NCBI RefSeq assembly: GCF_035594765.1 | Contig: NC_085842.1 | Location: 118,123,036-118,187,035 of the forward strand | Length of the DNA: 64,000 nucleotides | From: Anolis carolinensis | Taxonomy: Eukaryota | Direction of reading: 5' to 3' | In this document: in pieces, positions 4,886-46,335 of the stretch | Layout: each line of letters opens with the position of its first letter | Position numbering within the stretch: position 1 is the stretch's first letter | Notes under the pieces: model-generated | The model's input: the letters and a program-made list of their open reading frames with translations, nothing else | What the model was told of the DNA's origin: nothing | Database searches by the model: none | Position numbers and translations under genes: made by a program

Positions 4886-7791
4886 TAATTTATGTTTTGA
4901 CATTGTAGTATATCACATTATGTGGTGACTGAGTAATGAAGTGTATATAAGCTGAGTGAGAGGAGAAGAATGTTGGTTACATTTGCACAGGGGTGGTAAT
5001 GGGAGGAAAGAAGGCGGTGTTGTATAATAAAGATGTAGTGAGAGTGCTTCCGGGCAATGGAGCAAGGATGGGTGGTATGTAAATCAGTCCTTGCCCAGAA
5101 GGGGGTATAAAGAAGAGATGACGTTTCAGGGTAGTGAAAATGACATTTTTTAAAGGGCTAATAGTATTAGCCTCTACATACACACTCCATGTGTATATAC
5201 AGCCTGCAGCACCCTGGGACCTCTAGCTAGGGAGGTTCTGGGAGCATATGTTCAAATTGCTTCACTGACTTGCTGAAAATTGAAACTGTGAGAGAGTGAA
5301 TTGTGAACTGCATTACGATTAGTTATTTTGTAGTTACCAAGATTAAAGGTCTCTAAACACATAAAACTGTGTTTTATAAACTTGTTTATAAATTTGCAGA
5401 TTTGTTTAATGTAATTAGCACCTCTTTGCCATTATACCAATATTCTAGCAGGGTTAGAGACTAACATCTCACATCATAACCATACACAGAATTTGGAGGA
5501 AAACATCTAACTAAGAATCATAGAGGCAGTATTGAAAAAAGGTAAGGATTTTCAAGTGGAATCACCATAGGTGGATGGTTAAGAAATGTGAGTATCAAAA
5601 TATCAGAAAACTTATGCCCTTGGTCCATATACTCCAGCTGTTCTGATTTGTCAGGGAAAGGCACAATTCATCCCCTGTTTGCATTCAGTTAACTCAGTAG
5701 AAATATTCTGTGTACCATTCCACTGTGTTTTTAAACACTTCATCAACTGAATTTTATATACATACTAATTAACATATCATATTTTTTTGCTTTTCTGTAG
5801 AAAATTTTACTTAAAGGAAATCCCACCAATACCAAAGTAGAAACTATCATACAGCTAAAGACCAACATCCTAAAACGAAGTATAAAATATCAAAGTCAAA
5901 ATAAAGCAGCTATGACCAAAATTGTTTAGACTACTAGTAAACACCCTTCTGAAAAAGAAAAAAGGGAAGGGGGGAAAGGGAGCTCTGTGCAGTGCTGACA
6001 GGAAAAACACAATCCGTTCTTTAGAAACAGGAATATTATAGAGTAGAAAACATGGTGCAAGGGAAATTCAGCACAACGGGAATAGGCTTAAAGAACTCCC
6101 ATGTGAATGACAGCATATTGAGAGGTTGACAGCACCATGGAGATGTGCCAGTCTTTCCAAATCTTCTAGGGTCGTCTTAGGGATAGTTGGAGGAATAGCC
6201 CAAGGGATTACATGACATAAAGGGAGTTGTTGGGATAGTTTCAAATACTGAGGAGGGAAGGGTGAAAGGAAAAGCAATCTAACTTGGCTCTCTGAAAATT
6301 GAGAGCTATGCCATTACGAAATTGGCTGAAAAGCTTGGCTGGCTGCTACTGTATGAAGTCTTCATTTCCTCCAGCCCTCAAACATGATTATAAAGTTGTG
6401 AAAATTTAATAAACATGAATTAAACATGAAACCTACCTCATCTGCTGGTACAATTTGTACTCCTTCCCAATCAAATCTGTTTTGATTTGGGGCAATTATG
6501 GTGCAAAAATGTGCAATTACCAAATGCTCAGAAATCAGTCCCAGGGGATAGCTTATGTCCCCACCTGTCAGCCCTGGCAACATGAGTGCAGGCCATTTAT
6601 ATTTTTGGGGGAGTGTTTTAAAAAGCCAAACCTGCTGGTTCATGGCAGGCATAAAGATCCACATTGTGCTTGCTAATAAAAACGAATGAAGCTATTTAAG
6701 AAGTGTTGTCACTGGAACATGTGGGGGGCTGCCAATTAGTAAACAGGTGGAGAAGTGCATTGGACTTGGAGGTGGCAGCAGGCCAAAGCTGAAATATACT
6801 TTTTGGGGCCCACCCTTTCTGCCCCTCACATTATTTGCTCACTTTGTATAGATGTTTGTTTCCTCCCCTGCCCAGCTTGCCCTCCTCTTGGGCCTGGCTA
6901 TTTCCTTTCCCCTGAGCAGGACATTCACTACATTCATCCAGCAATCTCCACAGCTGACTGGCTGCCAGAGCCAATGTTTGTTGCTGTGGCTACGCTTTGC
7001 AGTTAAAGGGAGTACTGAGCAGGCGGGCTCATCTGACTCTCTGGGACTCTCATGCAGCATGTAACTGCAGTAAACAGCATAGGGAGAGGATGGCAACAGC
7101 AAATGAAAAGTGCCGGGCCGGGCCTTCGGCTAGCACATAACTGAGAAGGCTGATCCTTTCAGCCCACGTAAGGCTGTGTCACTACTGCAAGTGAAAAACA
7201 GTGGGTTGTTCATTAACTCTCTCAAAGGTACCTTCACCAGAAGCACCAGAATCAGCTTGAACAAGTCAGAATTCCCTGGCTAATTAGCAGGTAAGAATTA
7301 ATGAGCAAGAAACAGAAGTGCTTGGCAGCAATGGTCTTGCTGACAATGGAGTTATTTTCCATCCCAAGCAAAGCCAAGACCTTGGAAATGTGTGGGGTTA
7401 GCAAAATCTACAGGGTAGAAGCCATGAATCAGGGAGTGCTGTCTCTTCCGGCTTGGAGGAGAGGAAAGGTTGCATAACCACATTCCAGGTCTTGCCTGTT
7501 ATACTATCCCTAGGAGGAAATGGGCAGGTGCTTTTCACAGGAGATGGTAAGGGGTGTGTGTGTGTGTGTGTGTGTGTGTGGAATGGGCTTTTCCCACAGG
7601 CATTGGAAGTTGTATAGTCCCACAAGAATTGTGCTACCTGTCTTCTCAATTAAACCCCCAAATTATGAATTATTATCTGTGGCTCCATTGAGATATACAC
7701 CCAGCACATATTGAAATTTTCCTAGTGTGCTAGTAACCTTTCGCAAATTTCCCTTGGAATATTTTAGAGTGTTTCCCACCAAATCTTAGGA

Positions 7792-7925
7792 CAGTGATTC
7801 TCAAATTGTGGGTGCCCAGATGTTTTGGCCTTCAACTCCCAGAAATCCTAAACCTGGTAAACAGGCTGGGATTTCTGGGACTTGTAGGCCAAAACACCTG
7901 GGGACCCACAGATTGAGAACCACTG
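7792..7925. mobile_element. Palindromic hAT-type MITE
   Basis: cagtgattctcaa...ttgagaaccactg TIRs; 8-bp TSD tcttagga/ccttagga. Confidence 0.85.
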
Positions 7926-10900
7926 CCTTAGGACCTTAGGGAATGGCTTCATAATTATCATAATCCTCTCACAATAGCCTGGAATAATTCCAGGATACAT
8001 AATAGGTTTTCTCACGAAGGTTTCCCACCTTTATCTGATTTTATCTAAAATTTTATCCTGGAGATGTTGCCTCATTCCACCCAGATGCACCCAGTTTCTG
8101 GGAAGGACTCACAAACAAAGGCTTGAAATCCACAAATGACAATGTATTAAATTTCCTGCCTACCTCTGATTGGCTCAGAGGCATAAGCGGACTCGCAACT
8201 GCTCCAGTGGTGCTGTGGATCCTAGCCAGCACCATCCAGGATCAATTAGGAACTGGCACAGCAATTTCCAATTGTTCGATACTGCTCTACCTTTCTGTCA
8301 AATGGTACTATAAATAAACCCATGTGTTTTCAGTTGAAGGTATGTCAGTTTTTTTGGAGTGCTTTCTCCGCTGACATCCTCTCTGGCCATTGAGAATGAT
8401 TTTGCCTTCAACTCATCTGTGTCTTATTCAGCCTTATGGGAATCTAGACACTACAGGCCCCAGAATCCATAGTTCTTATGGAGGCTGAAATCACATAACA
8501 TGTAGACAGGCCAGGAATTTTATAGATATCATGGAAGAATACCTAACTTATAGCCATTCTTCCATGCTGGAAAGGTTTTGTATTAAATCCTATTTTTTTG
8601 TCAGCTCCCAATGTTGACTGGAGATGTTAATGTCTAGATATCACAGTTTGGCTCTGATGTATCTGGAGGACCAGTGTCTTTCCTAAAGTAACAGTTCAGT
8701 GGGAAAAGTAGTAATAATGCACTCCATTCACATTTCTCTCCCAACTTCAATTGTACAATTGTCAAAGTTAAGCTTTTTCAAATCACCTAAAAGTCTTTGG
8801 CCAAACAATCGGTCAGTTTATTCAAATCAATACATGTAATCTAGTCCCTTGCATCTTTTTGTCCCTAGCCTTTTGAACACTTGCTGTGTAACAGTGATGC
8901 AGGTATGGTAAAAACTATGAATTGAATAATTCTGTTTGTATCCAACAGAATTACGGATTCTTTGTCAGTCATGATTCTAAACATAACATGTCCTCTTGTT
9001 TCCCTGGCCTTTAGTCCACAAATAGCCCCACTTCCTTTCAGTATCTTGCATTCTTCTGTCAAATTTTAAGTTTTGATTCAGTCCTATAGTCTCCTTAGCT
9101 CCTTTATCTTCATGCCCTGCCACTTGCATGTAGGACACGTCTTTTATATTTGTTTCTTTACTAAGCTGTTTAATCTGAGCCACCCCTCCCCACCCCCCAA
9201 AAATATGGAAAACAAAGCAATTGCCAAATAAAACAGAAAACCAAAACAACATCAATACAACAACAATAAAAACTAATCCCAGAATTAAAACACATATTTA
9301 AAAACTGAGGACCTCATCACATTGAAGCCAAGAAGTGTCTTCTCCCCGCTTCCCCCGGAGCCCATCATATGATGCAGGGCTACTTCTGGCGGGGCTCCCT
9401 GCCTGCAGTGTAGAGAAATAACGCTCAGAGGAATGGGTATACACCCAACTCCTCATACAAGAAAGCTGGAGGAGGAGTAGAAGCGGGGAGCAGTAGTGAA
9501 ATGTTGTGAGAAGGGATACCATGACTCTGATGACCCCTGAAAGGTAGGGAATGCAAAGTGACGCTGCCCTATGATTTCCCCCACTGTCCCCTGGCTTTGT
9601 AAGGGCCATCTGATGAGATCCAAAGAGAGCCTGAGTAAGTACTTTATTTGAACTGCCTAGCTGAAGACAAAGGTCTTTGCCTGATTTTTCAAAGATCATA
9701 ATATCTGGAAAGGCTGTTCCATGACTAGGATGCCACTATCAAAAAGTCTCTCTTTAATGACAGTTCTTTTCATCTGACCATCCTCTAATGGTAATCCTGG
9801 ATGAGATAGTAGTTCTTGATAATATTTTTGACAACGTGACTAGTTGGAACATTTTGTCAGCATCTCTATTTCATTTTGAAAAAAATTATTACACAGAATT
9901 CAGGAAATAAACCATCAGACTTCAGTTCTTCCAATTTTCTACCAGCAGGAAGGAAATAGGACAAAGGGAGGAGGTATGTTTCTTGCAATAAATGTTTTCC
10001 ACTCTCTCTTTTTTCTGTTAGAAAATAGCAGATATTCTAAAATCAACTTCTCTATGCTCCAGAAATGTCTTTCATGTGGAGGCCTACTGCAAACTTTGCA
10101 GAGTTGATCGGCTCCCTAGGAACATAGAGGTTAACACCTTTAAAGTACAAATCCTTTCACATTTTGGTCAGTGAATCAGTGTGGTATAGTGGTTAGACTG
10201 GGATTTTGAAGATCCGAATCCTCTGCATTTTCCAGATCTTGGGGCCTGGCCCCTTTTGCTGATTTTCAGGTCAGAGGAGGGATCCCAGACCAATTAAAAA
10301 TAATTGTGCTGCTATCCCTTTTTGCTCTAAGCTGCTTCCGAGTTACTGCTTTGGACTCGCCAGGTAATCTGCTTGGCATTTCCTTCCCTTCCCAAAGTCT
10401 CTCGGTCCTTGCCAGGCACAAGTGCTCAGTGGGAAGAAACAATTAGCATGAGAAGATACTGGAATGCTGAATATGTTACTGTAGGACTGTGGCTCTGTGG
10501 CTTTCCCTATTTTATTCTCAACTGTCCTATTTCTGCTCCCATTTTAGCATTCACTCTGAATGGTTGAAACGACAATACAATTGTCTTTCTTGTTTTGACA
10601 CACAAGTGCATCGCTGTTAGCAAAAGCATGGTAGAAATATCTTGCTTGTTTTCCTTTTCCTCCCACACACAGCTCTTGGTTAAGTATTTTCTCCTTCTGT
10701 ACTCCTTCACCCATAATTCCTGGCTAAAGATCTTTTTCCTTTCTCTCGCCTCTTCACATCTCCTAGAAGTGATGATCTTCTATCTCCTTCCATAATCCTC
10801 TTCTCTTGTATCTTCTTTCTTTTCTTTCTAATTCTCCTAGCTTCATTTGTTCCTGTTAGCCAACCAAGCTGTGCTTCCTTGACCTCATTGAGAATATGCT

Positions 10901-17313: not shown

Positions 17314-18041
17314 CAGGGATCCTTAAACATTTTAAGTGGAGGGCCAATTCACAGTCTCTCAGACTGTTGGGCGGCCGGACTATGATGAAATAATCCACAA
17401 TGCGGATTGTTGTTGTTGTGTGCTTTTAAGTCATTTCAGACTTAGGTCAACCCTAAGTTTAAAGTTTAGGACAGAGGCCAGGTCAATGGCCTTGGAGGAC
17501 CTTAGTTTGGGGACCCCTGATCTAGACGATCTCATAAGACCATAGGAAAGCAAAGAGACCTCCAAAGACCTTCTAGATGGTCTCATAAGACCATCGGTAA
17601 GGAAAGGGACCCTCAAAGGCCATCTAGATGATCTCATCAGGTCATCAGAAGACCATAGATAAGGAAATGGACCTCAAAGACCATCTAGATGGTTTCATAA
17701 GACCATAGGTGAGGAAAGGGGCCCCCAAAAGCCATCTAGTTAATCTCATAAAACCATAGGTAAGGAAAGGGACCCCCAAAGGCCATCTAGATGGTCTCAT
17801 AGGACCATTGGTAAGGAAAGTGACCTCCAAAAGCCATCTAGATGGTCTCATAAGGCCGTAGCTAAGCAAAAAGACCTTCAAAGACCATCTAGATGATCTC
17901 ATAAGACCATAGGTAAGCAAAGAGACCTCCAAAGACCAGGTAGACTTAGGTCAACCCTAAGTCTAAAGTTTAGAACAGGGGCCAGGTCAATGACCTTGGA
18001 GGGCCGCATCCGGCCCACGGGCCTTAGTTTGGGGACCCCTG
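17314..18041. mobile_element. Non-autonomous hAT (Charlie-like) with duplicated right end
   Basis: Left TIR cagggatccttaaac; right TIR gtttggggacccctg twice (ends 17519 and 18041); TSD atctagga/atctaggg. Confidence 0.78.
17520..17937. repeat. Minisatellite, 8 units of 51 bp
   Basis: (a/t)tctag at 17520, 17571, 17622, 17683, 17734, 17785, 17836, 17887. Confidence 0.92.
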
Positions 18042-29084: not shown

Positions 29085-29935
29085 GGAAGGAGAAACAATT
29101 GGGACTGTCTGCTCTTGGGAAAGAGAGTTCTTTAGGTGCCCACGTTCCATCACCCATAGCTTCCATTTCATCACACTGAACTCACTGGTGACTTTGGGTT
29201 GTTTCATAGATCGTGATAAGCAATTGCATTTTAGCCTCTCTGAGCTCATGGGATTACTTTCAGGATTGTAATATCCACACAGAAGAGATCACATAACAGC
29301 ACTTGGTTGTGACCTGGCTGTGGGTGTTCCTTGTGTAATAAGTAAGACAGTGTGACTCATTTATGTAGTCCTCAAAGTCTGCAAAGCTTTTGCCTGTCTT
29401 TATTGCAATGTGTTGTAAAATACCAAGCAAACACTGTGACAGTCTTGAGGAGCTGGAGTGTTATGACTGTGCTTCAGACTACCTTTATCAAGAACTGACC
29501 ACAAACTGAAGAAGCTTGAGGCTACTGAACTGAAGCAACCATATTTTACTTCCATTAGCAGAGTAAAGCAACCAGGCCTGAATGATTTCTGAAATGCAGG
29601 AATGGTTTGAAAGATTGGGGATGGGAAGGGGGTATCTAGAAACTGAAACAAATCCAGTGGGAATAGGCTTGCTACCAAACTTATTGAATTCGTTTCAATA
29701 CGATACCTTAGCTGTTCAGTTGGAAAAGCTAGTTATAAGATGTTTTAATATAATGATGTACTGAAGTCATTCATTAGTAAGATTCAAGAGAATCATACTA
29801 TCACCACTCAGTTACCGATGGATACAATATATATCTGTTATTTTTAAAAGTAACTTTCCAAGCTCTGTCTACAGAGCATAGCTGGGAAATTTATACCAGT
29901 TTGGCATCATAACTGTTCAGAAGTATACTATAGAG

Positions 29936-30070
29936 CAATGGTTCCCAATCTTTGGGCCTCCAGGTGTTTTGGACTTAAACGCCCAGAAATCCCAGCCAGC
30001 TTACTCACTGTTAGGAACTGTGGGAGCTGAAGTCCAAAACACCTGGAGGCCCAAAGGTTGGGAACCACTG
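29936..30070. mobile_element. Palindromic hAT-type MITE
   Basis: caatggttcccaa...ttgggaaccactg; perfect 8-bp TSD ctatagag. Confidence 0.88.
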
Positions 30071-30888
30071 CTATAGAGGAAGCAACTTCTGTCTATAATT
30101 TATAGGGGGTTTTTTTGGTTATTGAAGATTGCCAATTTCAATGTGATGCTTTTCAGATATTTTAATCAACTATTATCATCTATGACCGTTAGCCGCGCTT
30201 TGATCGTTAGCCGCCACAATGTCAGTGGACTAAATCCCAATCCAGGGTGTGCTTATGGCATCAATAATTTTGAATTTCCTGGAAGTTTTCCAAGATGACA
30301 GGCATCTGCCTTGTGTTCATCATAATCATTGCTGATAACTTGCAACATACCTTTAAAGTCATGATTCATGCATACCTAATAGAGATAGGTAAATCTGTCA
30401 AGATTCGTTTTACCCAGATTCTCATTTTCCTATTAGTAATCTCATTCCATCTTGGTTTTGCATCTAGGTGATTTTCCATATAAAAATGTATACACATTGT
30501 CCACACTATGCAAATATTTTACATTTATCTATGAACAAATTTTAAAATGCAGGCATTTCATGAATAAAACACTTTTGGTATCACTTTTTGCATGTAATGT
30601 TTCTTGTATGGTGCCTCATAAATGTGGAGAAAGTAGGGCATTTTAGCACCTAATAACTTTCCAGTTGATGTTCAGGAAGGGGAAGGATATGATCAACTTG
30701 TGTTGAAATGCAAACCAAATGAATGTGTATCATTCCTCATATGGACATCACTATCTCTTGCTACCATGCAAGCCCTTTCAGTGTATCATCTTTTTCCTGT
30801 CATTGGAGAGTTCAAGGATAATCCTTTACTACCCTGGGACAAAATGATAGTGAAAACTATAATTCAACTTTCTTTCTCTGTTCTTCAG

Positions 30889-31863: not shown

Positions 31864-31906
31864 TTATTACTAGTGGACACTCAGGGATCTGCGCAATAGT
31901 TTAGAC

Positions 31907-32041
31907 CAGTGGTTCTCAACCTGTGGGCTCCCAAGTATTTTGGCCTACAACTTCCAGAAATCCCAACCAGTTTACCAGCTGCTAGGATTTCTGGGAGTTG
32001 AAGGCCAAAACATCTGGGGACCCACAGGTTGAGAACCACTG
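31907..32041. mobile_element. Palindromic hAT-type MITE
   Basis: cagtggttctcaacctgtggg...cccacaggttgagaaccactg; same family as 7792 and 36725. Confidence 0.85.
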
Positions 32042-34845
32042 GCTTAGTGGCACTCATGTGAGAAGCACAAATAACTAGAGTGTTCCTCTACTCTTACATC
32101 TTCTCTTTCTCCAAGGCTCTAGCAAACACAGATATCCTCCATCTATAGAGTTTTTAAAAAACTAGATAGGAACAAACTGCATCATACCACTTCCACTACA
32201 CCTTCACATTATTAGTTGTTATTGGAAAACTTGTAGAGTTGTTATAGTACTCTTTATGGGCAAAGCCATTGGAATGTAGCCAAAAGGCAAAGGAGCTGAA
32301 AGGAGTGGGAAAGAGTGCCCTCTAAGATGTTAACAATGCTCTACCTGTGCTGGAATCTCCTACACTTGAAATCTGGCAAGCTGAACAAGTTTCAGCTAAC
32401 TGCTGCCTTAGGGAAATCATGTCTAGATGTGTATAAACTCCTGGGATGATATGACCCATGAGCAGAAGTAATGTTGCTTAGAAATGCATTGTTAGATGAA
32501 GTGGGAACAGTGTTAGAATCTCTATTGTCAGTTTATTTTTATCCTCTTTTGTATGTCTACTATTTACCACAATCAAAAGAGCTAAACTCCCATGGGCCAA
32601 CAACAGAGCCAGTAGAAATACTCTCTATTCTCCCAGGGATAACAGAAGCAACCTCTGAGAGAATTTACCATGATAAAGAAAGGAGAAGGAAGGAAGGAAG
32701 GAAGGAAGGAAGAGAGATCTATTAGCCCATTTTACTTGTTAGTCTAGAATTAAAAAACTAAAACTGTACTAAATTGGGAAAGACAATTTCTTAGCCAATT
32801 TCCAATCATGAATTTTTTTCTTGCTATATTTTGGGGATGCTGCAAAAAAGATATAGGGTAGAAGAGAATTTGAAAAGCTACCATTTTGTTTTCCTTAGGA
32901 AATCCTTTTCTTACTTGCCTTTTTTAAAATGTGGAGATATTCAAAATGGCTGCCATTATAAAAAATACAGTAGTTTCCATCTTTGCTGTTCTACACTGTG
33001 CCACTATGCCCTATTCCAGTCTGTTCTGTTCTTTTACTTTATTTACACTCTTCCTTCAAAGCTTGGATTCAAAAGTATTTGAAAAACAAATCAATTGCAA
33101 GATGCCATTGATTCTAAGATTCAACCTGATTTTGGAACTCCAGTTTTTTGGGGGGAAGTGTGTATTTTTGATTCTAAGACACATCCCCATTTTGCGAAAA
33201 GGAAATTTTCCTAGACTATCATGCTGAATTTCTAAGTATGAAATTTAAGAATCAAATAACACACTGAAATATATTTAACAAATATTTTAATAACAATAGA
33301 ATTACATATAGCAACAATAACAAAAAGAAGTACAGTAAATGTAGAGAAATAAACCACATATGGTCTTTAATTCAGTTCTTTCAATGGAACAGGCAGGATT
33401 TTTAAATCACTTCTGTCAATGGAAGAGTCAGGATCTTTAAATCACTTCTTTAAACCAACAGACAGGATCTTTTAATCACTTTGTTCAACAGGGAGAGCGA
33501 GTTTTCCACCTAAACTGAAACTATCATGACAGCAAAGTGCGCAATTCAAGAATGCTACCAATTCTAATACTGGGTTATTCCCCAACTTCTGGTTAAGCAG
33601 TATAAAACCAGGTTATGGGCCAGATGTTCCTGGACATCTTGTGGATAGTCATTGTAAGCTGTGTTGAAAAGGGATTTGTGCAGTAAGAAGAGGGGCTACG
33701 TTACGTAGGCATACTTTGATCTCACCCAAGACGGGAAAACTCATTTTAGGAGACACGTGTGATAATGCCCTAAAACTTACTCCCAGGCAAGTGTGTTGAT
33801 TACCTGCTCAAATAATTCAGCAGAAGAAAGTCTAGTGAGAGCAGGTAGGCATGAACAGAAGATAGAATTTCACAGAACAATATCTCCTGGATCATTATTT
33901 CTCTCAAGTCCTCATATACACTCTCTACACATACAGAGGGACACACATATGCACACACACATTGCAACACTATCCCAGAAAGGGAAATCAAACCAGTATC
34001 TAAAAAACCACTGGTAATACAACTTCCATGTAATCATAGTCTGTTTCACTGATCCTCTAAGCAGGTTTTATTTTTGAGGAAGAAGCATTCTAAAATCAGT
34101 AATGAAAAGATACTTTGACTGTTTTTAGCCTGGCAGTAGGAGAAAGTGTTGATGTACAATCATAGCCCACTGGTTTCCAAATTCTCTAGACTTGTGCCTA
34201 GCAATAGGGTGCAGAAGGTTTTCTATTGTTAGATTATCAGGGCTGACAGCAATAAGTGAATAAGACAATTTGATAGGACGAAAAGAGTAACTTCAGAACT
34301 GAAGACTAAGCCACCAATGTGCACTGTATTCTGATGGAAATATTGTGCATTCTCCATGTAAAAATCCCTACCACAATTCTTGGCTTCCTTCTCAATGTAC
34401 TGTTTGTTGTTAGTTGTTCCATTCTCTGAGCTGCCCAATGTTTTAAAGGAGCAGAATGCCAAATGGTGAATTAATTAAAATGTTATTTCTCACTTTCTTT
34501 TCTTCCTCTCCTTTCCTCCCACCGTCTTCCCCTTCCTCTGCTGATTTAATTGGTATGATTTAACTAGGGACCTATTTAATGGCTTTAATATGCAACATGG
34601 CTTATATCAATAATGAATAATGGTGGCATATTTGTGAGCCTGGTGCAGCATTTATAAGTAACATGGTTCACATTTAATAGCATTCTAATTGGACCTTATC
34701 AAATCATTGCCCAACTTTAGGTTTTGTATTTTGTTTCTACTTGGATCTCCTGAGTACCTACGAGACTTTGATCTGAATCTTGCCACTGGATATGTTCCAA
34801 ACAGAGTCATTTTTATGTCTTCAGATCCATTTCTTTATCCCTTAG

Positions 34846-35677: not shown

Positions 35678-36724
35678 GTAAAGAACCCAAATGGATGAGG
35701 AGGAGAATTGTGTAGCTTTTTGCCATTGTTTGGTTTGTAAGGCAAAAGAAGGGTGGGGAAGGAGGTTTCTTCTATACATTCCCCCTTTCAGCTGGTTAAT
35801 TCTGGAACATCGTGAGAACTTAGTATGTTTCCTGGCAAAGAATGCATTGAAGGACTGTCTCCCTATCTCCTAGATTCCAATAATATCAGCTACATTCTCT
35901 GTCTCCTCTGCCTCATATGGTGAGGAGTGCCGTGCAATGGTATAGTAAAGAGCTAGAACTGTTTTTCTGATACTGCCTGTGAGGTCCTATAGGCCTTTTC
36001 TTTATGTAGTTGTATCTGTTCTATCCACCCAAATAGAGTCATATTTCAATATATTTATATTTTTGCCTGAACCCAACTGGGATGCCACTGTTCAAAACCT
36101 TCCACAAAACTGTCCCAGGATCCCTTCCTCACTCTCATTTGGTTTCAGGTCCTTATATCACACAGTTTAAATTGTGAATTCCCTAACAGGTCACAATTTG
36201 TAATTCCTCCCTGTTTCCAATTACTGATGGCAGACATTCTACCTCCTCCCCTCACAAAGCTACAGGTGCATGCATATTGTTTGTTTCTTTGTTTATTCAT
36301 GGAACGTCTTGTTTGCCTTTCCATTGTGTACTTAAGATGATCAAAGAGCAATAAAATTAACTCCAACCGATGTTCTGGCCATAACTGTGAAATTCATAAA
36401 GCCGCTAAAGCTGCTAGAACAGTGTGTATTATTTAAAACCTCAGAGATATGAAATTCTCTCTCCCTTCTGAAAAACAAAACCAAACCAAACCAAAAACAC
36501 AACCACCCATGGAAAATATAAGCATCATCAGATTTCTCAGAAGTTATTTTTTTAGCATAGGGTCCATTAGTCAGAAAACTCTGCATTAAAAACCTCTGAT
36601 CACTTGAATAAATAAACACATCAGAACTGAGGAAAGTCACTTATTTTGGACTTTTTCCTAGAATCCCTCAGCCAGCAAGGCCCTGGGCTAGGAATGGGAA
36701 AAGTGATGCCAGCAAACTTTATGT

Positions 36725-36859
36725 CAGTGGTTCTCGACCTGTGGGTTCCCAGGTGTTTTGGCCTACAACTCCCAGAAATCCCAGCCAGTTTACCAGCTAT
36801 TAATATTTCTGGTAGTTGAAGGCCAAAGCATCTGGGGACCCACAGGTTGAGAACCACTG
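36725..36859. mobile_element. Palindromic hAT-type MITE
   Basis: Same TIRs; perfect 8-bp TSD ctttatgt. Confidence 0.88.
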
Positions 36860-38232
36860 CTTTATGTGGTCCCAAAAGCAAACTTCATATTTAGCACCCA
36901 CATCCTCCAAGGAGTATGTTTTAGATCAGGGGTGATTTTTTATTTCAAAACATGAAGTGACCTAATGTGTGCAGAGTGCATGTTGATGTAATTAACAAAG
37001 TTAATTTTTAGTAGAGTGTTGTTAATAAGCTGGTATCCAAGATCCACTGAAAAGCAGGTGCTGCACCCAAACCTTGAGGGGTTGCTCACCCTTTCCCTAG
37101 GCCATTGGCAAGAGCATGCTGGCTGGGAAATTTAGGAGGATTCGTCGAAGAGATAGCATCTCCAAGCTCCAGCTAGTTCTTATAGTGGCCAACCTAATGG
37201 TTTCGGAAATCCTACCAGCTACTCAAGAAGACCATAGCCCTCCCATCTTTGTCCCCAGGTATCTAGTATTGAAACATATATTGCCACCTTTAATCATGGA
37301 GGTCTTATAGTTTTCTCCACAATTAGCTCTTGAATCCTATTTTAAAGTCAGATTAGAACAGGCTTGGGTTTTGCTAAGTTTTTAACTTTTCTGTCCTCCA
37401 TTATACTTTATGCCATTTTAACAGCATTTTGTAAATTTTAAAAATATGCTCTTTTGAATATGCTTATTTTTCTATGTAATTCTGCATGAAATTGCTGCCA
37501 GCACATTTCCCAAATGTGGTATGTTTAATGTCATGTACATGTATTAATTGAATTATCTAAAACATGTTACAATAGTAATATGCTGTTTTATTATCAGAAG
37601 AACATTCATTTCAAAGTAGGACTGCCCTTTGGTCCACATTTTGCTTCTCAAATAGTGAATTAGATAGGTTTGTATTAAAATGCAAAGTTAATTATTTTTT
37701 TCTGTACCATCCACTGTACAGTATTTTTAAGTCTGTAGATTTGGTAGTGACTTTTGTAGAGTGAAGGACTGTATTTTAGCATTCCTCTGGGAGTGCAAAG
37801 ACAAATCTCTACCCACCTACAACATGGATCATTTTAATAAATCTTCTTGGGCTGGCACAGAATACAGGACTTCCCCAGCCAGCCCAAGGGCAACTTGAGT
37901 TTACTTTCTCCCCATATTTCTTTTCTTTTTCACAAAAGTGGTATAATTAATCTCTGTCCTTATTGCAGCAACTGTAATGAAAACAAGAGCAGGGAAAATG
38001 CAAGGTAAGCATCAGTTCAGACCTAGCTAGCCTACAAATAGACTCTTGACTGGAAACCTGCAATGAGCAATTCATTTGCTATCAAAAAGCTCCAGCAAAA
38101 TATGGGTCAAAAACCTCTTGCATAAACTCACTCACTGTGGACATCTAAGATTCATCTTCTCTTTTTCAAAAATAGTTTATCTACAGTTTCCAGAAAGTGC
38201 TCTCTTTAATTGTAGATGGTTCCTCTTTACAG

Positions 38233-39892: not shown

Positions 39893-40088
39893 CCTCTTAA
39901 TGTTGCAGAAGAAAGGAAGGTCCTTTTGCTCATGAACAAACATGGCCCAGACAAACTATACCAGATAACAGCCAACACCAGCGGCAGCAAAGACATGGAC
40001 TTGACACTGCAGAGAGGACAGATTGTGGCACTCTTACATGACAAGGACACCAAGGGCAACCCTAATCGATGGTTGGTGGACACTGGAG
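39893..40088 (+). CDS. ARHGEF37: RhoGEF coding exon 10 (first SH3, N-part)
   Basis: ttcaacag|CCT; LYQITANTSGSKDMDLTLQRGQIVALLHDKDTKGNPNRWLVDTG; donor G|gtactg, phase 1. Confidence 0.92.
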
Positions 40089-40266
40089 GTACTGTGATAG
40101 TTACAGCTGTCAACCTTTTATCTCATTGACATCAAGTGTAACTTTATAGTCAAAACCATGGGAGATATCACAGAATGTTGACATGACATTTTTAAAGGCA
40201 CACACAACATGTGTTTATCCAAATATGTGTGATATATGACATGGCACTAAAATGTGGTTACTATAT

Positions 40267-40409
40267 TTTTTCTTCGTGTACTCTGTGAATGCACACTAAT
40301 GGAGAACCAACAGATACTCTTCCAAGCTAAAGTTTGAAATTTGGCGGTAACCCCGCCCCTCTTCCCGGAGGGTATAAAGGGCGCCCTCCGCGCCCGCTCT
40401 CCAGTTCCT
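40267..40409 (+). repeat. DIRS left inverted terminal repeat
   Basis: Reverse complement of the right ITR apart from a 19-nt gap, a 2-nt gap and 3 substitutions. Confidence 0.92.
40351..40378 (+). promoter_or_regulatory. DIRS promoter: GC box and TATA box
   Basis: ccccgcccc at 40351-40359 and TATAAA at 40373-40378, about 70 nt upstream of the gag ATG. Confidence 0.7.
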
Positions 40410-40449
40410 TTTTTTCCTCCGCAAAGCTCACTTTGGACTCTTCGTTCTT

Positions 40450-42507
40450 ATGTCAACCACGCGTTTTAAACGGTGCACTCAGTGTGCCGCTAAGATTCCA
40501 GATTCCGACGGCCACGCTAAGTGCCTTTTCTGCCTTGGCGAAAGCCACGTCGTCGGTACCTGCCGTTTTTGCCTGGCCTTTACAGCTCAGGCCAGAAGAA
40601 ATAGAGCTGCGAGACTCAGTGCAGCTCTTTACGAAAAAACTCTTGCTCCTGAGGCTTCCACTTCCACCTCGGCCTCGATGGCGTCCAGGCCTGCTCCGTC
40701 GGTATCATCTAAAACCTCAAAAACTTCGAGACCGCGACCGACCAAACCGCCCTGCACGGTGTCCACCGCTACGGTATCCACCCGGTCGGGCAAGATGGGC
40801 CCTTCATCAACTTCGAGTTCGGTGGCTTCGGCCATTTCCACTCGATCCCGCCTGGCTTCGCCGCCATCTTCTTCCACCATGAAGATTGCCTTCAAGAGGG
40901 CTCAGGAGGAATCCAGACGGGCTCAATCTGACTCGGCAGCTGTGTGCCCGATTCCCCTGACGCCGGGAAAATCGCTGAGGGTCGCGTCGAAACAACCCCC
41001 AGCAAAGAAACGAATGATCCAGAGGTCGTCCTCCTCAGCGTCTTCGAAGAAGGACGTCCCCTCCTCTGGGCCTTCCTCTAGGAGATCCTCTCCTATCCAA
41101 CCAGCACAACGCCTCCGCTCCTCTTCCTCTCCTCATGGTCAGTCCTCGGATGCGGACGCTCAAGCCTCCCCCGACCGGTCGGTCAGGACGGTTATTAAGG
41201 CTCCCCAGCCGGCACCATCTCGTCTTCCGGCTCGACAAGAACTCTTTCCCCCGGCTCAAACACCTGAGAGGGGTAGACAGATGACGCGCTTAGCCCGCGC
41301 CGCCCAGGCCTCCGCGTCCAAGGGCGTTCCTCCACAGCCGGCTCTCCCTGCTCCTGAGGTAATACCTCATCAGGACTCTGTGCTTGTTTCTCCTCCCCGG
41401 TCCCCTCAAGGGCCCGAGGAGGATGACCCCGATATCGAACACCCCAAGTCGATCCTCTCCGCCTCCGTTGTCTCTCTCGGTCTCGACCTCTCCCCGCCTC
41501 ACGACGCCTACGAGGTCGACCCACCTTCCCCGACGGATAATATTCGGGCTTTCTCCGACCAGATGGTCAGAATGGCAGACGCTCTGGGGATGGAAATTAA
41601 ACAAACTTCAAAGGCCGTTACCGACCCCGTTTTCAAGAGGGTTCAAGCCCAAGCCCCGCCAGCCACCTTGCTGCCTTTTCTTCCATACCTCCTGGACGTC
41701 ATCCAGGCATTTTGGAAGACTCCATCTTCGATACCTCCAACCTCTAAGAAAATAGAGGCCTGGTACCGAACCGATGACGAAGCCTTGGAATGGCTCAAGC
41801 ATCACCCTGACCCAAACTCCATGGTGGTAAAGGCCTCCCAATCGTCGGGTCGACACTCCAACTCCCCTGCCGACAGAGAGGGCAAACGCTTCGATGCGGT
41901 AGGCCGCAAGCTGTACTCCGGTGCTCTCCTCCTTTGCCGTATGGCAAACTACGGGGCCTGCATGGGCGCTTATCAACAGATCCTCTGGGAGAAAGCCCAA
42001 CCCTTCTTCGCCAAGCTTTCTGACGAAGACCGGTCAGTCCTTTCGACCCTCCAACAGGAGGCGGACTCTCTCGCACACCACCAAATTCAAATGGCTAAGC
42101 ATACCGGTGATACCGCCGGAAAAATGATTGCCCACGCGGTCGCGATCAGACGGCATGCATGGCTTCGGTCCTCAGGACTCTCTTCTTCCTCTCGACAAGT
42201 GATCGAAGACCTTCCTTTCGACACCCAGGGCCTTTTCAATTCTGGCACTGATGACAAACTTAAGTCCAATCACGACTTCAAGATTCTCGCAGCAAAGTGC
42301 GGGACCGATCAACCTCAGGCTCAGCGGACCCGATGGTTCCCACAACGGTACCGTCGCTACCCTCAGCCTTTTCGTCACCAGCCGTTTCGACGCTCGTCGA
42401 GCTCGAGTCACCACAGTCATCAGCAACAACCTCGCCGCCAGCACCAGGTCCCAAAAGGTCGGGGCAAAGGTCCTGCAGCTATGCCACAACCCCAACGACG
42501 GGCCTGA
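40450..42507 (+). CDS. DIRS ORF1 Gag-like protein (685 aa)
   Basis: N-terminal Cys/His finger (CTQC...DGH..CLFCLGESH....CRFC), S/P/R-rich linker, C-terminal helical domain (DREGKRFDAVGRKLY...RRHAWLR...IEDLPF) of the DIRS gag/LAP2alpha-like type. Confidence 0.9.
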   Translation: MSTTRFKRCTQCAAKIPDSDGHAKCLFCLGESHVVGTCRFCLAFTAQARRNRAARLSAALYEKTLAPEASTSTSASMASRPAPSVSSKTSKTSRPRPTKPPCTVSTATVSTRSGKMGPSSTSSSVASAISTRSRLASPPSSSTMKIAFKRAQEESRRAQSDSAAVCPIPLTPGKSLRVASKQPPAKKRMIQRSSSSASSKKDVPSSGPSSRRSSPIQPAQRLRSSSSPHGQSSDADAQASPDRSVRTVIKAPQPAPSRLPARQELFPPAQTPERGRQMTRLARAAQASASKGVPPQPALPAPEVIPHQDSVLVSPPRSPQGPEEDDPDIEHPKSILSASVVSLGLDLSPPHDAYEVDPPSPTDNIRAFSDQMVRMADALGMEIKQTSKAVTDPVFKRVQAQAPPATLLPFLPYLLDVIQAFWKTPSSIPPTSKKIEAWYRTDDEALEWLKHHPDPNSMVVKASQSSGRHSNSPADREGKRFDAVGRKLYSGALLLCRMANYGACMGAYQQILWEKAQPFFAKLSDEDRSVLSTLQQEADSLAHHQIQMAKHTGDTAGKMIAHAVAIRRHAWLRSSGLSSSSRQVIEDLPFDTQGLFNSGTDDKLKSNHDFKILAAKCGTDQPQAQRTRWFPQRYRRYPQPFRHQPFRRSSSSSHHSHQQQPRRQHQVPKGRGKGPAAMPQPQRRA

Positions 42508-44464
42508 CGCCCACTCTCTCGGGGATCTTTCTATCTCCACTACTACTGCCACTACCATGCCGTTCCTAGGCCCCGACCAGATCCTTCCTCTCTGTTCTTT
42601 TCTCGACCGCCTAGCTCCTTTTTACCGCGAATGGGAGTCTATCACCTCAGATGCCTGGGTTCTTCGCATTGTCAGAGACGGCTATGCCTTGGAATTCGAA
42701 ACTTTGCCACCCACGGGTCACATCCTCCACACCGACCCTTCACCGGAAATATGCGCCGAGGTCGACTCCCTTCTGGTGAAGGGCGCAATCCAGCCTTCTC
42801 CTTCCGAGCAGGACACTCGAGGTTTCTTCTCGAGATACTTTACGGTTCCCAAGCGGGGCGGAGGTCTTCGGCCTATCCTCGACCTACGGGCTCTAAACCT
42901 CTTCATTCTGCCTTCAAAATTTCGAATGGTTTCAGTGGCCTCCATTCTCCCGATGCTCCGACACGGAGACTACTTCGCCTCTATAGACTTACGCGACACG
43001 TATTTCCACGTCTCGGTGCGTCGATCCCACAGACGCTTCCTTTCCTTCAAGCTCCTGGGACACTCTTACCAGTTCACAGTTCTCCCTTTCGGCCTCGTCA
43101 CGGCCCCAAGGGTCTTTACAAAGGTGGTCGCCGTGGTGGCAGCGCACCTCAGGAAAAAGGGCATTATGGTCTTTCCTTATCTGGACGATTGGATGATTGT
43201 CGCGTCCGACCCCTCATCCCTTCGAAACCACGTCTCACAGTCTCTTTCTCTCCTGCAACGACTGGGCCTTCAGTTGAATGTCTCAAAGTCTCAACTCCTC
43301 CCAACCACAGAGATCCGCTTCATCGGAGCTCTCTTCAACTCCATCACGGAAACCGCCTCCCTACCGAAGGACAGGTTCCTAGCCCTTCAACAGCACCTTT
43401 CTCTCCTCCTCCGCAACCGCAGGATCGGAGCCCACGCGGTCCAAGTTCTTCTGGGTCACATGGCCTCCACGGTCATGGTTACCCCTTTCGCCAGATTACG
43501 TCTCAGACCTCTCCAAAGATGGTTTATAGACTCTTTCAAACCCCATCGGCATCCGAGCTCAATGTTTCTCATGGTACCGAACCACGTTCGCCTCTCCCTT
43601 CGTTGGTGGCAGGACCCAGCGAACGTTTGTGTGGGACTTCCCTTCCATCCCTCCCTACCGTCAGTCACCATCACGACCGATGCCTCCAATTTTGCATGGG
43701 GAGCCCACATGTCAAACCTCACCGTCAGGGACCTGTGGTCCACCCAAGAAAGGTCTCACCACATAAACTTTCTAGAACTGTTATCAATCTTCAAAGCCCT
43801 CCGGGCGTTTGCTCGCTTTCTTCCCCACAAGTCTGTTCTAATCCAAACGGACAACGTAGTAGCTATGTACTACATCAACAAACAAGGGGGTACGGGCTCG
43901 AGAAAACTCATGGCTCTCTCGATGGACATTTGGCTATGGTGCATAGCGAGACACATAACTCTGTCGGCAGTTCACCTTCCGGGGGCTCAAAACACTCTAG
44001 CAGACTCTCTAAGCATAATAACGACCTCCCCCCACGAGTGGCGTCTCGATCCCGAGATCCTGAAATCCGTCTTCGACGATTGGGGCTGGCCAGCTCTGGA
44101 CCTTTTTGCCTCCCCCTTGAACGCTCAACTTCCTCGCTTCGGAGCGAGACTACCTCCAAACTCGACTCCGGGCTGTCTCGGAGACGCGTTTCTCCTCGAC
44201 TGGACTCTCGAACCCGTCTATCTTTTTCCTCCCTTCCCTCTCATCTCGAGAGTAATAGAGAGACTCTATCTAACACCGACATCGGCCATCCTGATCGCCC
44301 CTGCATGGCCACGCCAGCCGTGGTATCCCACGCTACTCCGGATGTGTGCGGATCCTCCCCGCACTCTCCCAACTCTCCCTCATCTACTATCTTCGCAGAA
44401 GGGACAGGTCCTCCACCCCGACATCCCGTCCCTACACCTGACTGCCTGGAGGATACTTCCTTAA
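42251..44464 (+). CDS. DIRS ORF2 reverse transcriptase / RNase H / methyltransferase-like
   Basis: RPILDLRALN, LPFGL, YLDD (43178-43189), RNase H TTDAS, HINFLEL, TDN, ADSLS; C-terminal DLFAS...YLFPPF...APAWPRQPWYP. True start uncertain (ATG 42251 or 42557). Confidence 0.94.
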   Translation: MTNLSPITTSRFSQQSAGPINLRLSGPDGSHNGTVATLSLFVTSRFDARRARVTTVISNNLAASTRSQKVGAKVLQLCHNPNDGPDAHSLGDLSISTTTATTMPFLGPDQILPLCSFLDRLAPFYREWESITSDAWVLRIVRDGYALEFETLPPTGHILHTDPSPEICAEVDSLLVKGAIQPSPSEQDTRGFFSRYFTVPKRGGGLRPILDLRALNLFILPSKFRMVSVASILPMLRHGDYFASIDLRDTYFHVSVRRSHRRFLSFKLLGHSYQFTVLPFGLVTAPRVFTKVVAVVAAHLRKKGIMVFPYLDDWMIVASDPSSLRNHVSQSLSLLQRLGLQLNVSKSQLLPTTEIRFIGALFNSITETASLPKDRFLALQQHLSLLLRNRRIGAHAVQVLLGHMASTVMVTPFARLRLRPLQRWFIDSFKPHRHPSSMFLMVPNHVRLSLRWWQDPANVCVGLPFHPSLPSVTITTDASNFAWGAHMSNLTVRDLWSTQERSHHINFLELLSIFKALRAFARFLPHKSVLIQTDNVVAMYYINKQGGTGSRKLMALSMDIWLWCIARHITLSAVHLPGAQNTLADSLSIITTSPHEWRLDPEILKSVFDDWGWPALDLFASPLNAQLPRFGARLPPNSTPGCLGDAFLLDWTLEPVYLFPPFPLISRVIERLYLTPTSAILIAPAWPRQPWYPTLLRMCADPPRTLPTLPHLLSSQKGQVLHPDIPSLHLTAWRILP

Positions 44465-45483
44465 ATTCTCTCCACCCAGACCTGCAGGCGATCCTTCGCG
44501 CCGCTCACAAACCGGCCACATCGAAGGCCTATGCTTACAAGCTGGCAAAATTCCAAACTTTCCTTCGGGACCGACGCATCGATCCCGCCTCTACTTCGAT
44601 CCCGCTGGTCATGGACTTCCTACTTTCCCTTGCGGATCGTCAACTTTCTCTGGCCTCGATAAAATCCTATCTCGCTGCTCTCTCCTGGCATTTCCAACGT
44701 CAGGGACAACCCTCTCTCTTTTCTAACAACCTCATTAAGACCTTCCTTCGAGGTTACAACAACTTGCACCCTCCAGTTCAACCTCCGACTCCCGGATGGA
44801 GCCTCGAACTCGTCCTTTCTCAACTAGCTTCAGCTCCCTTTGAACCTATGGCCTCTGCAGACCTTCACCTTCTCTCTTGGAAGACTGCCTTCCTTATCGC
44901 TATCACCTCTGCGCGCAGGCCTTCGGAACTGGCTGCTCTCCGGGTGGACGAACCCTATCTCCGTTTCCACCACGACAGGGCTGTCCTTCGCCCGGACATC
45001 ACCTTCCTACCTAAGGTGGTCTCTGCTTTTCACCTGAACCAGGACATAATACTTCCTGCTTTCTTCCCTAATCCTTCTTCTTCTCTGGAACGGAAACTCC
45101 ATCTCCTCGATGTCAGGAGAGCCCTCCTTTTCTACAAGGACAGGACTAAGGACATACGTAAGTCACCTAGACTGTTTGTGGCTTACGCTACCCATAAACT
45201 GGGCGAACCACTTTCTTCCCAAAGACTCTCACACTGGATTGCTCAGACCATCGAGCTCGCTTATCAGCTGGCCAAACGCCAACCCCCCTCTTCGATCCGC
45301 CCTAGATCTACGAGGGGCCTTTCCACCTCTACGGCCTTCCTGAAGGGCGTCCCTCTTGACTCCATCTGTCGAGCGGCTATCTGGTCCACTCCATCCACCT
45401 TTGTTTCACACTACAGGATGGACTCAAAGAACCTCAAGGACTCGGCCTTTGCCAGGTCCGTCCTTTCCTCCTGCCTTACCTAA
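42631..45483 (+). CDS. DIRS ORF3 tyrosine recombinase with long N-terminal extension
   Basis: YR core from about 44461: TSARRPSEL (Arg-I), RSTR (Arg-II), AAIWSTPSTFVSHY (Trp, catalytic Tyr); first about 610 codons overlap ORF2. Confidence 0.92.
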   Translation: MGVYHLRCLGSSHCQRRLCLGIRNFATHGSHPPHRPFTGNMRRGRLPSGEGRNPAFSFRAGHSRFLLEILYGSQAGRRSSAYPRPTGSKPLHSAFKISNGFSGLHSPDAPTRRLLRLYRLTRHVFPRLGASIPQTLPFLQAPGTLLPVHSSPFRPRHGPKGLYKGGRRGGSAPQEKGHYGLSLSGRLDDCRVRPLIPSKPRLTVSFSPATTGPSVECLKVSTPPNHRDPLHRSSLQLHHGNRLPTEGQVPSPSTAPFSPPPQPQDRSPRGPSSSGSHGLHGHGYPFRQITSQTSPKMVYRLFQTPSASELNVSHGTEPRSPLPSLVAGPSERLCGTSLPSLPTVSHHHDRCLQFCMGSPHVKPHRQGPVVHPRKVSPHKLSRTVINLQSPPGVCSLSSPQVCSNPNGQRSSYVLHQQTRGYGLEKTHGSLDGHLAMVHSETHNSVGSSPSGGSKHSSRLSKHNNDLPPRVASRSRDPEIRLRRLGLASSGPFCLPLERSTSSLRSETTSKLDSGLSRRRVSPRLDSRTRLSFSSLPSHLESNRETLSNTDIGHPDRPCMATPAVVSHATPDVCGSSPHSPNSPSSTIFAEGTGPPPRHPVPTPDCLEDTSLNSLHPDLQAILRAAHKPATSKAYAYKLAKFQTFLRDRRIDPASTSIPLVMDFLLSLADRQLSLASIKSYLAALSWHFQRQGQPSLFSNNLIKTFLRGYNNLHPPVQPPTPGWSLELVLSQLASAPFEPMASADLHLLSWKTAFLIAITSARRPSELAALRVDEPYLRFHHDRAVLRPDITFLPKVVSAFHLNQDIILPAFFPNPSSSLERKLHLLDVRRALLFYKDRTKDIRKSPRLFVAYATHKLGEPLSSQRLSHWIAQTIELAYQLAKRQPPSSIRPRSTRGLSTSTAFLKGVPLDSICRAAIWSTPSTFVSHYRMDSKNLKDSAFARSVLSSCLT

Positions 45484-45823
45484 TGTTGTTGCCTTACTCA
45501 AAACCAGTTTTCGGGTTTATCCTTCTTACAAGCTGACCGTTGTCATCCACCCCGTTTGTAATCGATGTGCTCAGGGGTTCTTTAACGTAGTGCTTGTGTA
45601 CTATACTTACCCACTGCACTGAAATGTATTTTTTGAATACTTCTCCCTCTGTTTTCAGAGAATGAGTTTATGCCTACCTCTGTATTTTCTTACAGACTAT
45701 TGCTCACTTACAATGTTGTGATTGTGTTCTGGATCCTAACAACAAGGATCGGTTTCTTTGCACTATATGCTATTGCATCGTTTCTTTGACCGTTGCACTT
45801 GCTTGTTTTTGCACCTTCTGCTC

Positions 45824-45829
45824 AATAAA
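45824..45829 (+). terminator. Candidate DIRS polyadenylation signal
   Basis: AATAAA followed by GT-rich tgtgttgtttg, between YR stop and ICR. Confidence 0.45.
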
Positions 45830-45897
45830 TGTGTTGTTTGGACACTAGACTGGTTATCGGGTTTGCTATCCCACCTACCTACACCTCAGCTTGCTAG

Positions 45898-45992
45898 TCT
45901 CCATTAGTGTGCATTCACAGAGTACACGAAGAAAAAGGACAGGTTGCTTACCTGTAACCGTGTTTCTTCGAGTGTACTCTGTGAATTCACAC
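45898..45992. repeat. DIRS internal complementary region (ICR)
   Basis: 45898-45936 is the exact reverse complement of 40267-40305; 45937-45992 is the exact reverse complement of 46184-46239, joined as in the circular junction. Confidence 0.95.
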
Positions 45993-46051
45993 AATCCCGC
46001 CCTTCCTTCCCCACATGCAAACCTCTCCCTTTCTCGCTGCCTTTGCGGCGT

Positions 46052-46239
46052 AGGAACTGGAGAGCAGGCGCGGAGGGCGCCCTTTATACCCTCCGGGAAG
46101 AGGGGCGGGGTTACCGCCAAATTTCAAACTTTAGCTTGGAAGAGTATCCGTTGGAGCCTGCGCAGGCGCAGCGTTCTCCATTAGTGTGAATTCACAGAGT
46201 ACACTCGAAGAAACACGGTTACAGGTAAGCAACCTGTCC
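46052..46239 (-). repeat. DIRS right inverted terminal repeat with 3' extension
   Basis: aggaactggagagc...gaagaaa plus extension cacggttacaggtaagcaacctgtcc absent from the left ITR. Confidence 0.92.
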
Positions 46240-46335
46240 ATCTTCCTTTCCCTAAACATATCTTCTTTTTCAGAGCTAAAACCTGCATAGTAAGGTTGTT
46301 TAATGTGGGAGGTGTTATAGTGATGGACTGAAATA

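Follow-up and report, generated by a model that had tools for sequence, protein, structure and literature searches.

Probable expression of the tyrosine recombinase of a lizard DIRS1-type retrotransposon as a Gag fusion by readthrough of a conserved UGA-C

A stretch of 64,000 nucleotides of Anolis carolinensis DNA (the window; positions are counted from its first letter) contains at 40267..46241 on the + strand a complete DIRS1-type retrotransposon of about 5.97 kb, which belongs to a young multicopy family. Its open reading frames (ORFs) encode a Gag-like protein, a reverse transcriptase (RT) and a tyrosine recombinase (YR), and the question raised by this locus is how one RNA with three overlapping ORFs gives both RT and YR. 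The transcript of Dictyostelium DIRS-1 is described as a single 4.5-kb mRNA (PMC3950715). Comparison of the window with its relatives suggests that this element makes its recombinase as a 1677-amino-acid Gag-YR fusion by reading through a conserved UGA-C at the end of gag, with a probability of roughly 0.8. The features of the element are as follows.

40267..46241, + strand: complete DIRS1-type retrotransposon, from its inverted repeats and internal complementary region (ICR); ends approximate by a few bases.
40267..40409, + strand: left inverted terminal repeat, from complementarity, with a TATA-like box near 40372 recognized by eye.
40450..42507, + strand: ORF1, Gag-like, 685 amino acids, with an N-terminal Cys/His cluster (ORF call).
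42499..42511, + strand: gag stop cassette CGG GCC TGA CGCC, predicted site of readthrough (YR) and of a +1 shift (RT), from conservation in the clade.
42508..42630, + strand: 41-codon linker, open in the gag/YR and RT frames (clade columns).
42506..44464, + strand: ORF for RT, RNase H and a methyltransferase-like domain, in the +1 frame of gag, 652 codons from the stop (ORF call and domain search).
42508..45483, + strand: YR reading frame of 991 codons, about 650 of which overlap RT; the recombinase domain is the last 335 or so.
42631..42633, + strand: ATG made by the codon preceding a conserved RT tryptophan; not conserved (clade alignment).
43256..43258, + strand: CAA at the site of the predicted splice acceptor CAG of the sister families (sister comparison).
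45897..45992, + strand: ICR, complementary to both element ends (self-comparison).
46052..46241, + strand: right inverted terminal repeat and right extension (self-comparison).

An initial annotation of this locus claimed that gag and YR form one reading frame interrupted by a single TGA-C, and a recount agrees with this claim. Positions 40450-45483 contain 5034 nt, or 1678 codons, and stop codons are present only at codon 686 (TGA at 42505-42507, in the context cgg gcc TGA cgc) and at the last codon (TAA at 45481). The 41 codons from the gag stop to the ATG at 42631 are free of stop codons, as had also been stated. The openness of this linker alone is not significant, with 1.7 stops expected and a probability of 0.13 that it is stop-free by chance. 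The 248 codons from the gag stop to 24 codons beyond the YxDD motif of RT contain no stop, as compared with the 8.7-12.6 expected, and none of 2000 simulations is stop-free. The genome search lists 40 matches to the window's family with identities of 98-100% (663 candidates). In the 30 of these copies that were examined, the window's own among them, the TGA is kept in all and the C at position +4 in 29. The retention of the TGA says little, because the copies are about 98-99% identical. The window by itself is weak evidence for readthrough.

More divergent relatives were collected by a search with the YR domain. P0121, a 950-amino-acid ORF of the same genome, is 78% identical to the YR domain of the window, and 40 of the 48 loci listed for it were taken, together with 11 of the 48 listed for P0129, of which two are of the sister type described below and were set aside. 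The resulting 49 loci and the window fall into seven clusters, with 69-92% identity between cluster representatives, and five representatives form one clade in the RT tree with a support of 1.0. The gag ORF ends in NCC-TGA-C in all 50 loci, the codon in the P site being TCC in 33, ACC in 16 and GCC in one, and CGN is present at position -2 in 48. The frame is open as far as the YR domain in 40 loci; it contains stops in eight, all at least 684 nt downstream, and indels in two. No stop is present in the linker, in either the gag/YR or the RT frame, in the clade columns examined. The distance from the stop to RT is 55, 76 or 79 nt, so that the length of the linker changes by whole codons and in frame. 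The codon corresponding to the ATG at 42631 is ATG in 20 loci, GTG in 27 and TTG in three, and ATG is lost also in multicopy subfamilies. This ATG is probably a by-product, because an NTG codon is forced by the RT tryptophan codon. Many of the loci have no in-frame ATG for 299 codons, which is the limit of the search.

The variation within the linker was analyzed using 40 indel-free clade linkers. Over the 26 codons that follow the stop, shared variants occur at the third position of the gag frame in 20 columns and at the second position in seven (p = 0.0004). When CpG transitions are removed, the numbers are 16 and six (p = 0.005), and higher allele thresholds give p values of 0.005-0.04. In the gag tail, which served as a comparison, they are 21 and three. 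Seven pairs of sister linkers do not have this pattern (0.42/0.38/0.39), and the RT core is likewise unlike the codons following the stop. This excess of third-position variation is the strongest sign that the gag frame is probably translated directly past the stop. Coding constraint right after the stop is found in the clade without a conserved start codon.

Distant relatives were sought in metagenomes, with an RT alignment as the query. Grouped at 80% RT identity, the best 80 of 450 loci yield 67 clusters, with a median RT identity of 39%. Fifteen clusters are untestable, and RT and YR are both testable in the other 52. In 36 of the 52, exactly one stop separates the YR domain from an upstream ORF of 200 codons or more. 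Of the remaining 16, five are cut by the contig edge, six have a YR frame that is open along the whole of RT and a different arrangement upstream, three have YR in another frame and two have the frame open far upstream. The frame is closed within RT in none of the 52. The 36 stops are 28 TGA, eight TAG and no TAA, as compared with 12 TAA among 28 stops at the end of YR (p = 9e-6). Their contexts include TGA-C in 15 (TGA-CTA in five), TAG-G in six, TAG-CAA-CCA in one and also TAG-CGG. The first in-frame ATG is more than 100 codons away in 12 of the 36 clusters, and 27 of the 36 upstream ORFs are linked to lizard Gag by an iterated profile. A metagenome DIRS on a single contig (L176:1446-6326) has a stop-free Gag-YR ORF of 1626 codons. 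The open layout of these distant relatives suggests that readthrough may be old and splicing, as predicted for the sister families below, derived. Three other loci (L142, L152 and L155) have a swapped layout: RT follows gag in the same frame after a single stop (TAG-G, TAG-G and TGA-A, ending at 2272, 1694 and 2749, respectively), and the YR frame is open from a point 14-35 codons upstream of the gag stop. A AAA AAC is located nearby in L142 and GGGAAAT in L155 (frame unchecked), which hints at a -1 shift into YR in these elements.

Readthrough as the route to a Gag-linker-YR protein, as initially proposed, is supported in the window's clade, with its TGA-C in 50 of 50 loci, its dispensable ATG and its evolution in the gag frame, but it is not universal, because 20 sister families have a closed frame. 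These families were obtained by searching the window's own genome with a distant RT, with 67 loci of 12310 candidates retained, and their RT DNA is 53-56% identical to that of the window. Extra stops in intact relatives, which had been named as evidence against readthrough, are absent from the linkers of the 50 clade loci but number 8-22 between the gag stop and YxDD in the 18 sister representatives with an intact RT frame. L072 and L078 were dropped from this count as broken; an indel in L072 breaks the RT frame further down. The sister YR frame opens sharply about 25 codons past YxDD and is nearly stop-free for about 400 codons, without a conserved ATG. At this opening, a pyrimidine tract and CAG (T-L-S-L-L-Q) are present in 17 of the 18, most with a branch-point-like sequence upstream, and the putative acceptor codon is CAG in 64, AAG in two and GAA in one of the 67 loci. 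Within the final 130 nt of gag, 16 of the 20 families have donor-like sites in phase 1, scored with an approximate matrix, as against none of the 20 in either of the remaining phases. In Anolis sagrei, the gene model P0122 (1430 amino acids) joins gag to YR at exactly the predicted donor and acceptor. Because the acceptor, the donors of matching phase and P0122 agree, the sister families likely make a Gag-YR fusion of about 1430 amino acids by splicing the gag tail to an acceptor located within RT. Their gag stops are TAG or TAA, and TGA is found in 0 of 66 motif-bearing loci. No conserved donor was found in the 5' region of gag or in the untranslated region. L056, L060 and L078 lack a good phase-1 donor in the 130 nt before the gag stop; in L056 and L060 such a donor is located 179 nt upstream of the stop, and the L056 acceptor is AAG. 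The Sceloporus and Xenopus Gag-YR gene models P0130, P0131 and P0151 were considered as further support but not used, since they join elsewhere and may be prediction bridges over the stop. Two DIRS elements of different families (L051 and L076) lie tail to tail within about 14 kb (G000:C2:226198091-226212453).

Several points weigh against readthrough in the window and against the comparison with its relatives. The openness of the linker has a probability of about 0.13 by chance in each lineage, and the product over three deep lineages (about 0.003) is optimistic because the lineages are related. A stimulatory stem-loop downstream of the stop, for which the initial annotation suggested a check, was not found: folding of the region 3' of the window stop is no better than that of shuffled sequences (z +0.54), z ranges from -2.4 to +1.7 across 13 clade representatives, and the consensus-to-single energy ratio after the stop is 0.24-0.47, with no conserved stem or other conserved 3' stimulator (among pseudoknot-free folds with pairing up to 400 nt). 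The context UGA-CGC differs from the canonical UGA-CUA/CGG. L176 may be a mutated copy, the donor matrix is approximate, and P0122 is a gene model.

Among the alternatives, a spliced mRNA that skips the gag stop is an unlikely source of YR in the clade, whether its acceptor is located in the linker or, as in the sister families, within RT. Apart from the apparent use of splicing by the sister families, it is favored by the pyrimidine-rich linker. Several clade members have acceptor-like YAG sequences in the linker near F-x-D-R-L, 11 of 13 representatives have a CAG in the same phase 18 nt downstream of the lost acceptor, and some splicing may take place in the window's clade. However, none of the 13 representatives has the homologous acceptor, and no donor of at least 1 bit is present in the gag tail, in any phase, in eight of eight. 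In the 26 codons above the candidate linker acceptor, variation follows the gag frame; splicing to a site within RT would not account for the 248 open codons, and the change to TGA-C coincides exactly with the open-frame clade. No sequencing run labelled as RNA was listed as containing the element. No GT-AG joint in gag or RT is found in contigs that cover the whole element in four sequencing runs guessed to be RNA, and one of these contigs is unbroken from 42016 to 44223. These contigs are evidence neither way, because there is no positive control and the copy is in an apparent host intron.

YR may alternatively start alone at the ATG at 42631, by reinitiation, leaky scanning or a subgenomic RNA, and gag and YR would then share a frame because RT is in +1 relative to gag and YR in -1 relative to RT. 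In line with such a start, YR ORFs of about 950 amino acids from the tryptophan-linked ATG are called in lizards, frogs and other contigs, the codon is always ATG, GTG or TTG, all of which are possible start codons, and the linker alone is not significant. This alternative is also improbable, because the ATG is lost in 30 of the 50 clade loci, NTG being forced as described above, variation above the ATG is coding-like, and in the distant relatives ATG is absent within 100 codons in 12 of 36 clusters and TAA in all 36. A double frameshift (+1 at the stop, then -1) or decoding by selenocysteine or a suppressor would also yield the fusion and would suit the +1 shift context of the stop and the predominance of UGA in open-frame elements, but it is very improbable, since signs of constraint on the gag frame begin with the very first codons past the stop, TAG is used in eight of 36 clusters, and no Rfam family, those of the selenocysteine insertion sequence included, matches 40200-46300 at E 0.1. 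Readthrough of UGA-C is thus preferred for YR.

RT is somewhat more probably than not reached from the same stop by a +1 shift, judging from the bases around it, and the initial annotation overlooked this probable need of RT. In 20 of 20 sister families gag ends in CGN, followed by NTT (18) or TTC (two), TAG (17) or TAA (three), and then C in 19, and RT is in the +1 frame, which is open across the stop in the 20 representatives. The last gag residue is F, V, L or I in the sister families and S, T or A in the clade, yet the two final bases of its codon are constant. This site is probably not a splice acceptor, since TAA in three separate lineages argues against it. In 47 parsed clade loci outside the window's family, no RT-frame ATG is present between the stop and the conserved start of RT. 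UCC, UUU, GUU and AUU before the stop are antizyme +1 shift codons (PMC1874602), and GUU-stop-C is a proposed closterovirus +1 site (PMC3542737). Two sister loci, L031 and L034, have no RT-frame ATG ahead of the conserved RT start. In L031, L042, L045 and L066 no more than 20 nt of open RT frame precede the gag stop, so that RT is probably entered in these loci around the stop or downstream of it. A long RT frame open ahead of the gag stop was rejected as a sign of upstream entry, because it is explained by the codon composition of the gag tail: 27 of 28 representatives are within the range of shuffled sequences at P 0.05. Against the +1 shift, TTC, which re-pairs poorly, is present in two of 20 sister families, and GCC-UGA and ACC-UGA are absent from the main text of the antizyme review (PMC1874602). 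RT-frame ATGs lie upstream in many families; in the window, where the RT frame is open from 42203, they are located at 42251 and 42557. TCC, TTT or CCC precedes the stop in only nine of the 36 metagenome clusters, 16 of which have no RT-frame ATG, and a C-terminal RRF-like protein motif may account for part of the conservation.

If both steps take place, most ribosomes would terminate at the gag stop and release Gag. A small share would read through UGA-C, without an evident RNA stimulator, to give Gag-YR of 1677 amino acids, and another small share would probably slip +1 on NCC-U with the stop in the A site, to give Gag-RT of about 1337 amino acids. One full-length RNA would then give all three proteins, the long frame overlapping RT would serve as a tether between Gag and YR, and fusion to Gag would bring both enzymes into the particle. 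The wider proposal is tentative, with somewhat less than an even chance: the gag stop may be a three-way switch between Gag, Gag-YR and Gag-RT, and Gag-YR may be the conserved working form of the recombinase; most lineages would obtain it by readthrough, a lizard clade through splicing, and at least one element because the stop has been lost.

The element has the features of DIRS1-like retrotransposons, namely RT/RNase H and methyltransferase-like domains, a tyrosine recombinase, inverted terminal repeats and an ICR. In Pfam the RT ORF matches RVT_1 (E 8e-23), RT_RNaseH (E 2e-4) and PCIF1 (E 0.05), the latter two below the curated cut-off. Matches of YR to Phage_int_SAM are below the cut-off; it has 47 homologs, some of them labelled as tyrosine recombinase or core-binding domain. 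The overlapped part of the YR frame (residues 1-600) gives no match in a homolog search at E 0.001. Gag-like ORF1 has no Pfam match, and the related model P0130 carries LAP2alpha (PF11560) and aligns to sister gags at 35-39%. The arm 40307-40409 of the left repeat is 98% complementary to 46052-46154, and its outer end is complementary to the ICR. A strong donor-like site, CAG/GTAAGC, is located at the right end of the element (46213-46239), and its complement lies within the ICR (45937-45965). This complement resembles the 5' end of U1 snRNA, and splicing of a host intron could be affected. A host exon-like stretch with a weak SH3 match (E 0.009) is located just upstream of the element (39908-40089), and the element apparently occupies, in the sense direction, an intron of a gene with an SH3 domain, which we take to be ARHGEF37/38-like. 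Elsewhere the window contains a 51-nt tandem array, a cluster of 130-170-nt repeats and several copies of a palindromic repeat of about 150 nt resembling miniature inverted-repeat transposable elements (17520-17957, 3290-3854, 7784-7933, 29928-30078, 31900-32046 and 36717-36864).

DIRS elements, readthrough and shifty stops are already known. Elements of this kind are abundant in certain vertebrates; DIRS and Ngaro account for 2.1% of the zebrafish genome. In Gag-like, RT/RNase H/methyltransferase and YR ORFs, inverted terminal repeats, ICR and the long RT/YR overlap, the element resembles the DIRS1-like elements described for Dictyostelium (DIRS-1), Anolis (AcDIRS1 and AcDIRS2, PMC3266345) and Xenopus (bioRxiv 10.1101/2021.08.05.455354); of the Anolis elements, one has and one lacks the long overlap (PMC3266345). 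The accessible texts of PMC3266345 and the Xenopus preprint give no mechanism for expression of RT or YR, and no account of RT/YR translation in DIRS is found in those of PMC7192593, PMC5633606, PMC3950715, PMC3783388, PMC8547959, the zebrafish preprint and the first two thirds of PMC5009743. No paper on recoding in DIRS was found from titles and the beginnings of abstracts, and older reviews (Goodwin and Poulter 2001, Poulter and Butler 2015) or Repbase may mention the layout. The reading proposed here answers how one RNA with three overlapping ORFs would give RT and YR, and explains why a frame of 650 codons is kept open on top of RT; within a single genome, sister clades would arrive at one fusion protein by two routes, readthrough and splicing.

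PMC3542737 distinguishes readthrough of type I (tobamovirus, UAG-CAR-YYA), type II (alphavirus, UGA-CUA/CGG) and type III (gammaretrovirus gag-pol). As in programmed readthrough, an in-frame leaky stop in DIRS would lead to a C-terminal extension, and the contexts of metagenome DIRS match or resemble types I-III. Unlike in these types, the extension is a recombinase behind a 650-codon frame that overlaps RT, no stem is found, and the window's clade uses UGA-CGC. The predicted RT entry resembles the +1 shifty stops of antizyme (UCC-UGA, PMC1874602) and closteroviruses (GUU-stop-C, likewise PMC3542737) in its P-site codons, a stop in the A site and a +1 ORF without a conserved ATG. It differs from them in that ACC and GCC variants are present, no stimulator is identified, and the same stop would also be read through to a third ORF. 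If it is true that both recodings use one stop, these elements would be an unusual natural model of the competition among termination, readthrough and frameshifting.

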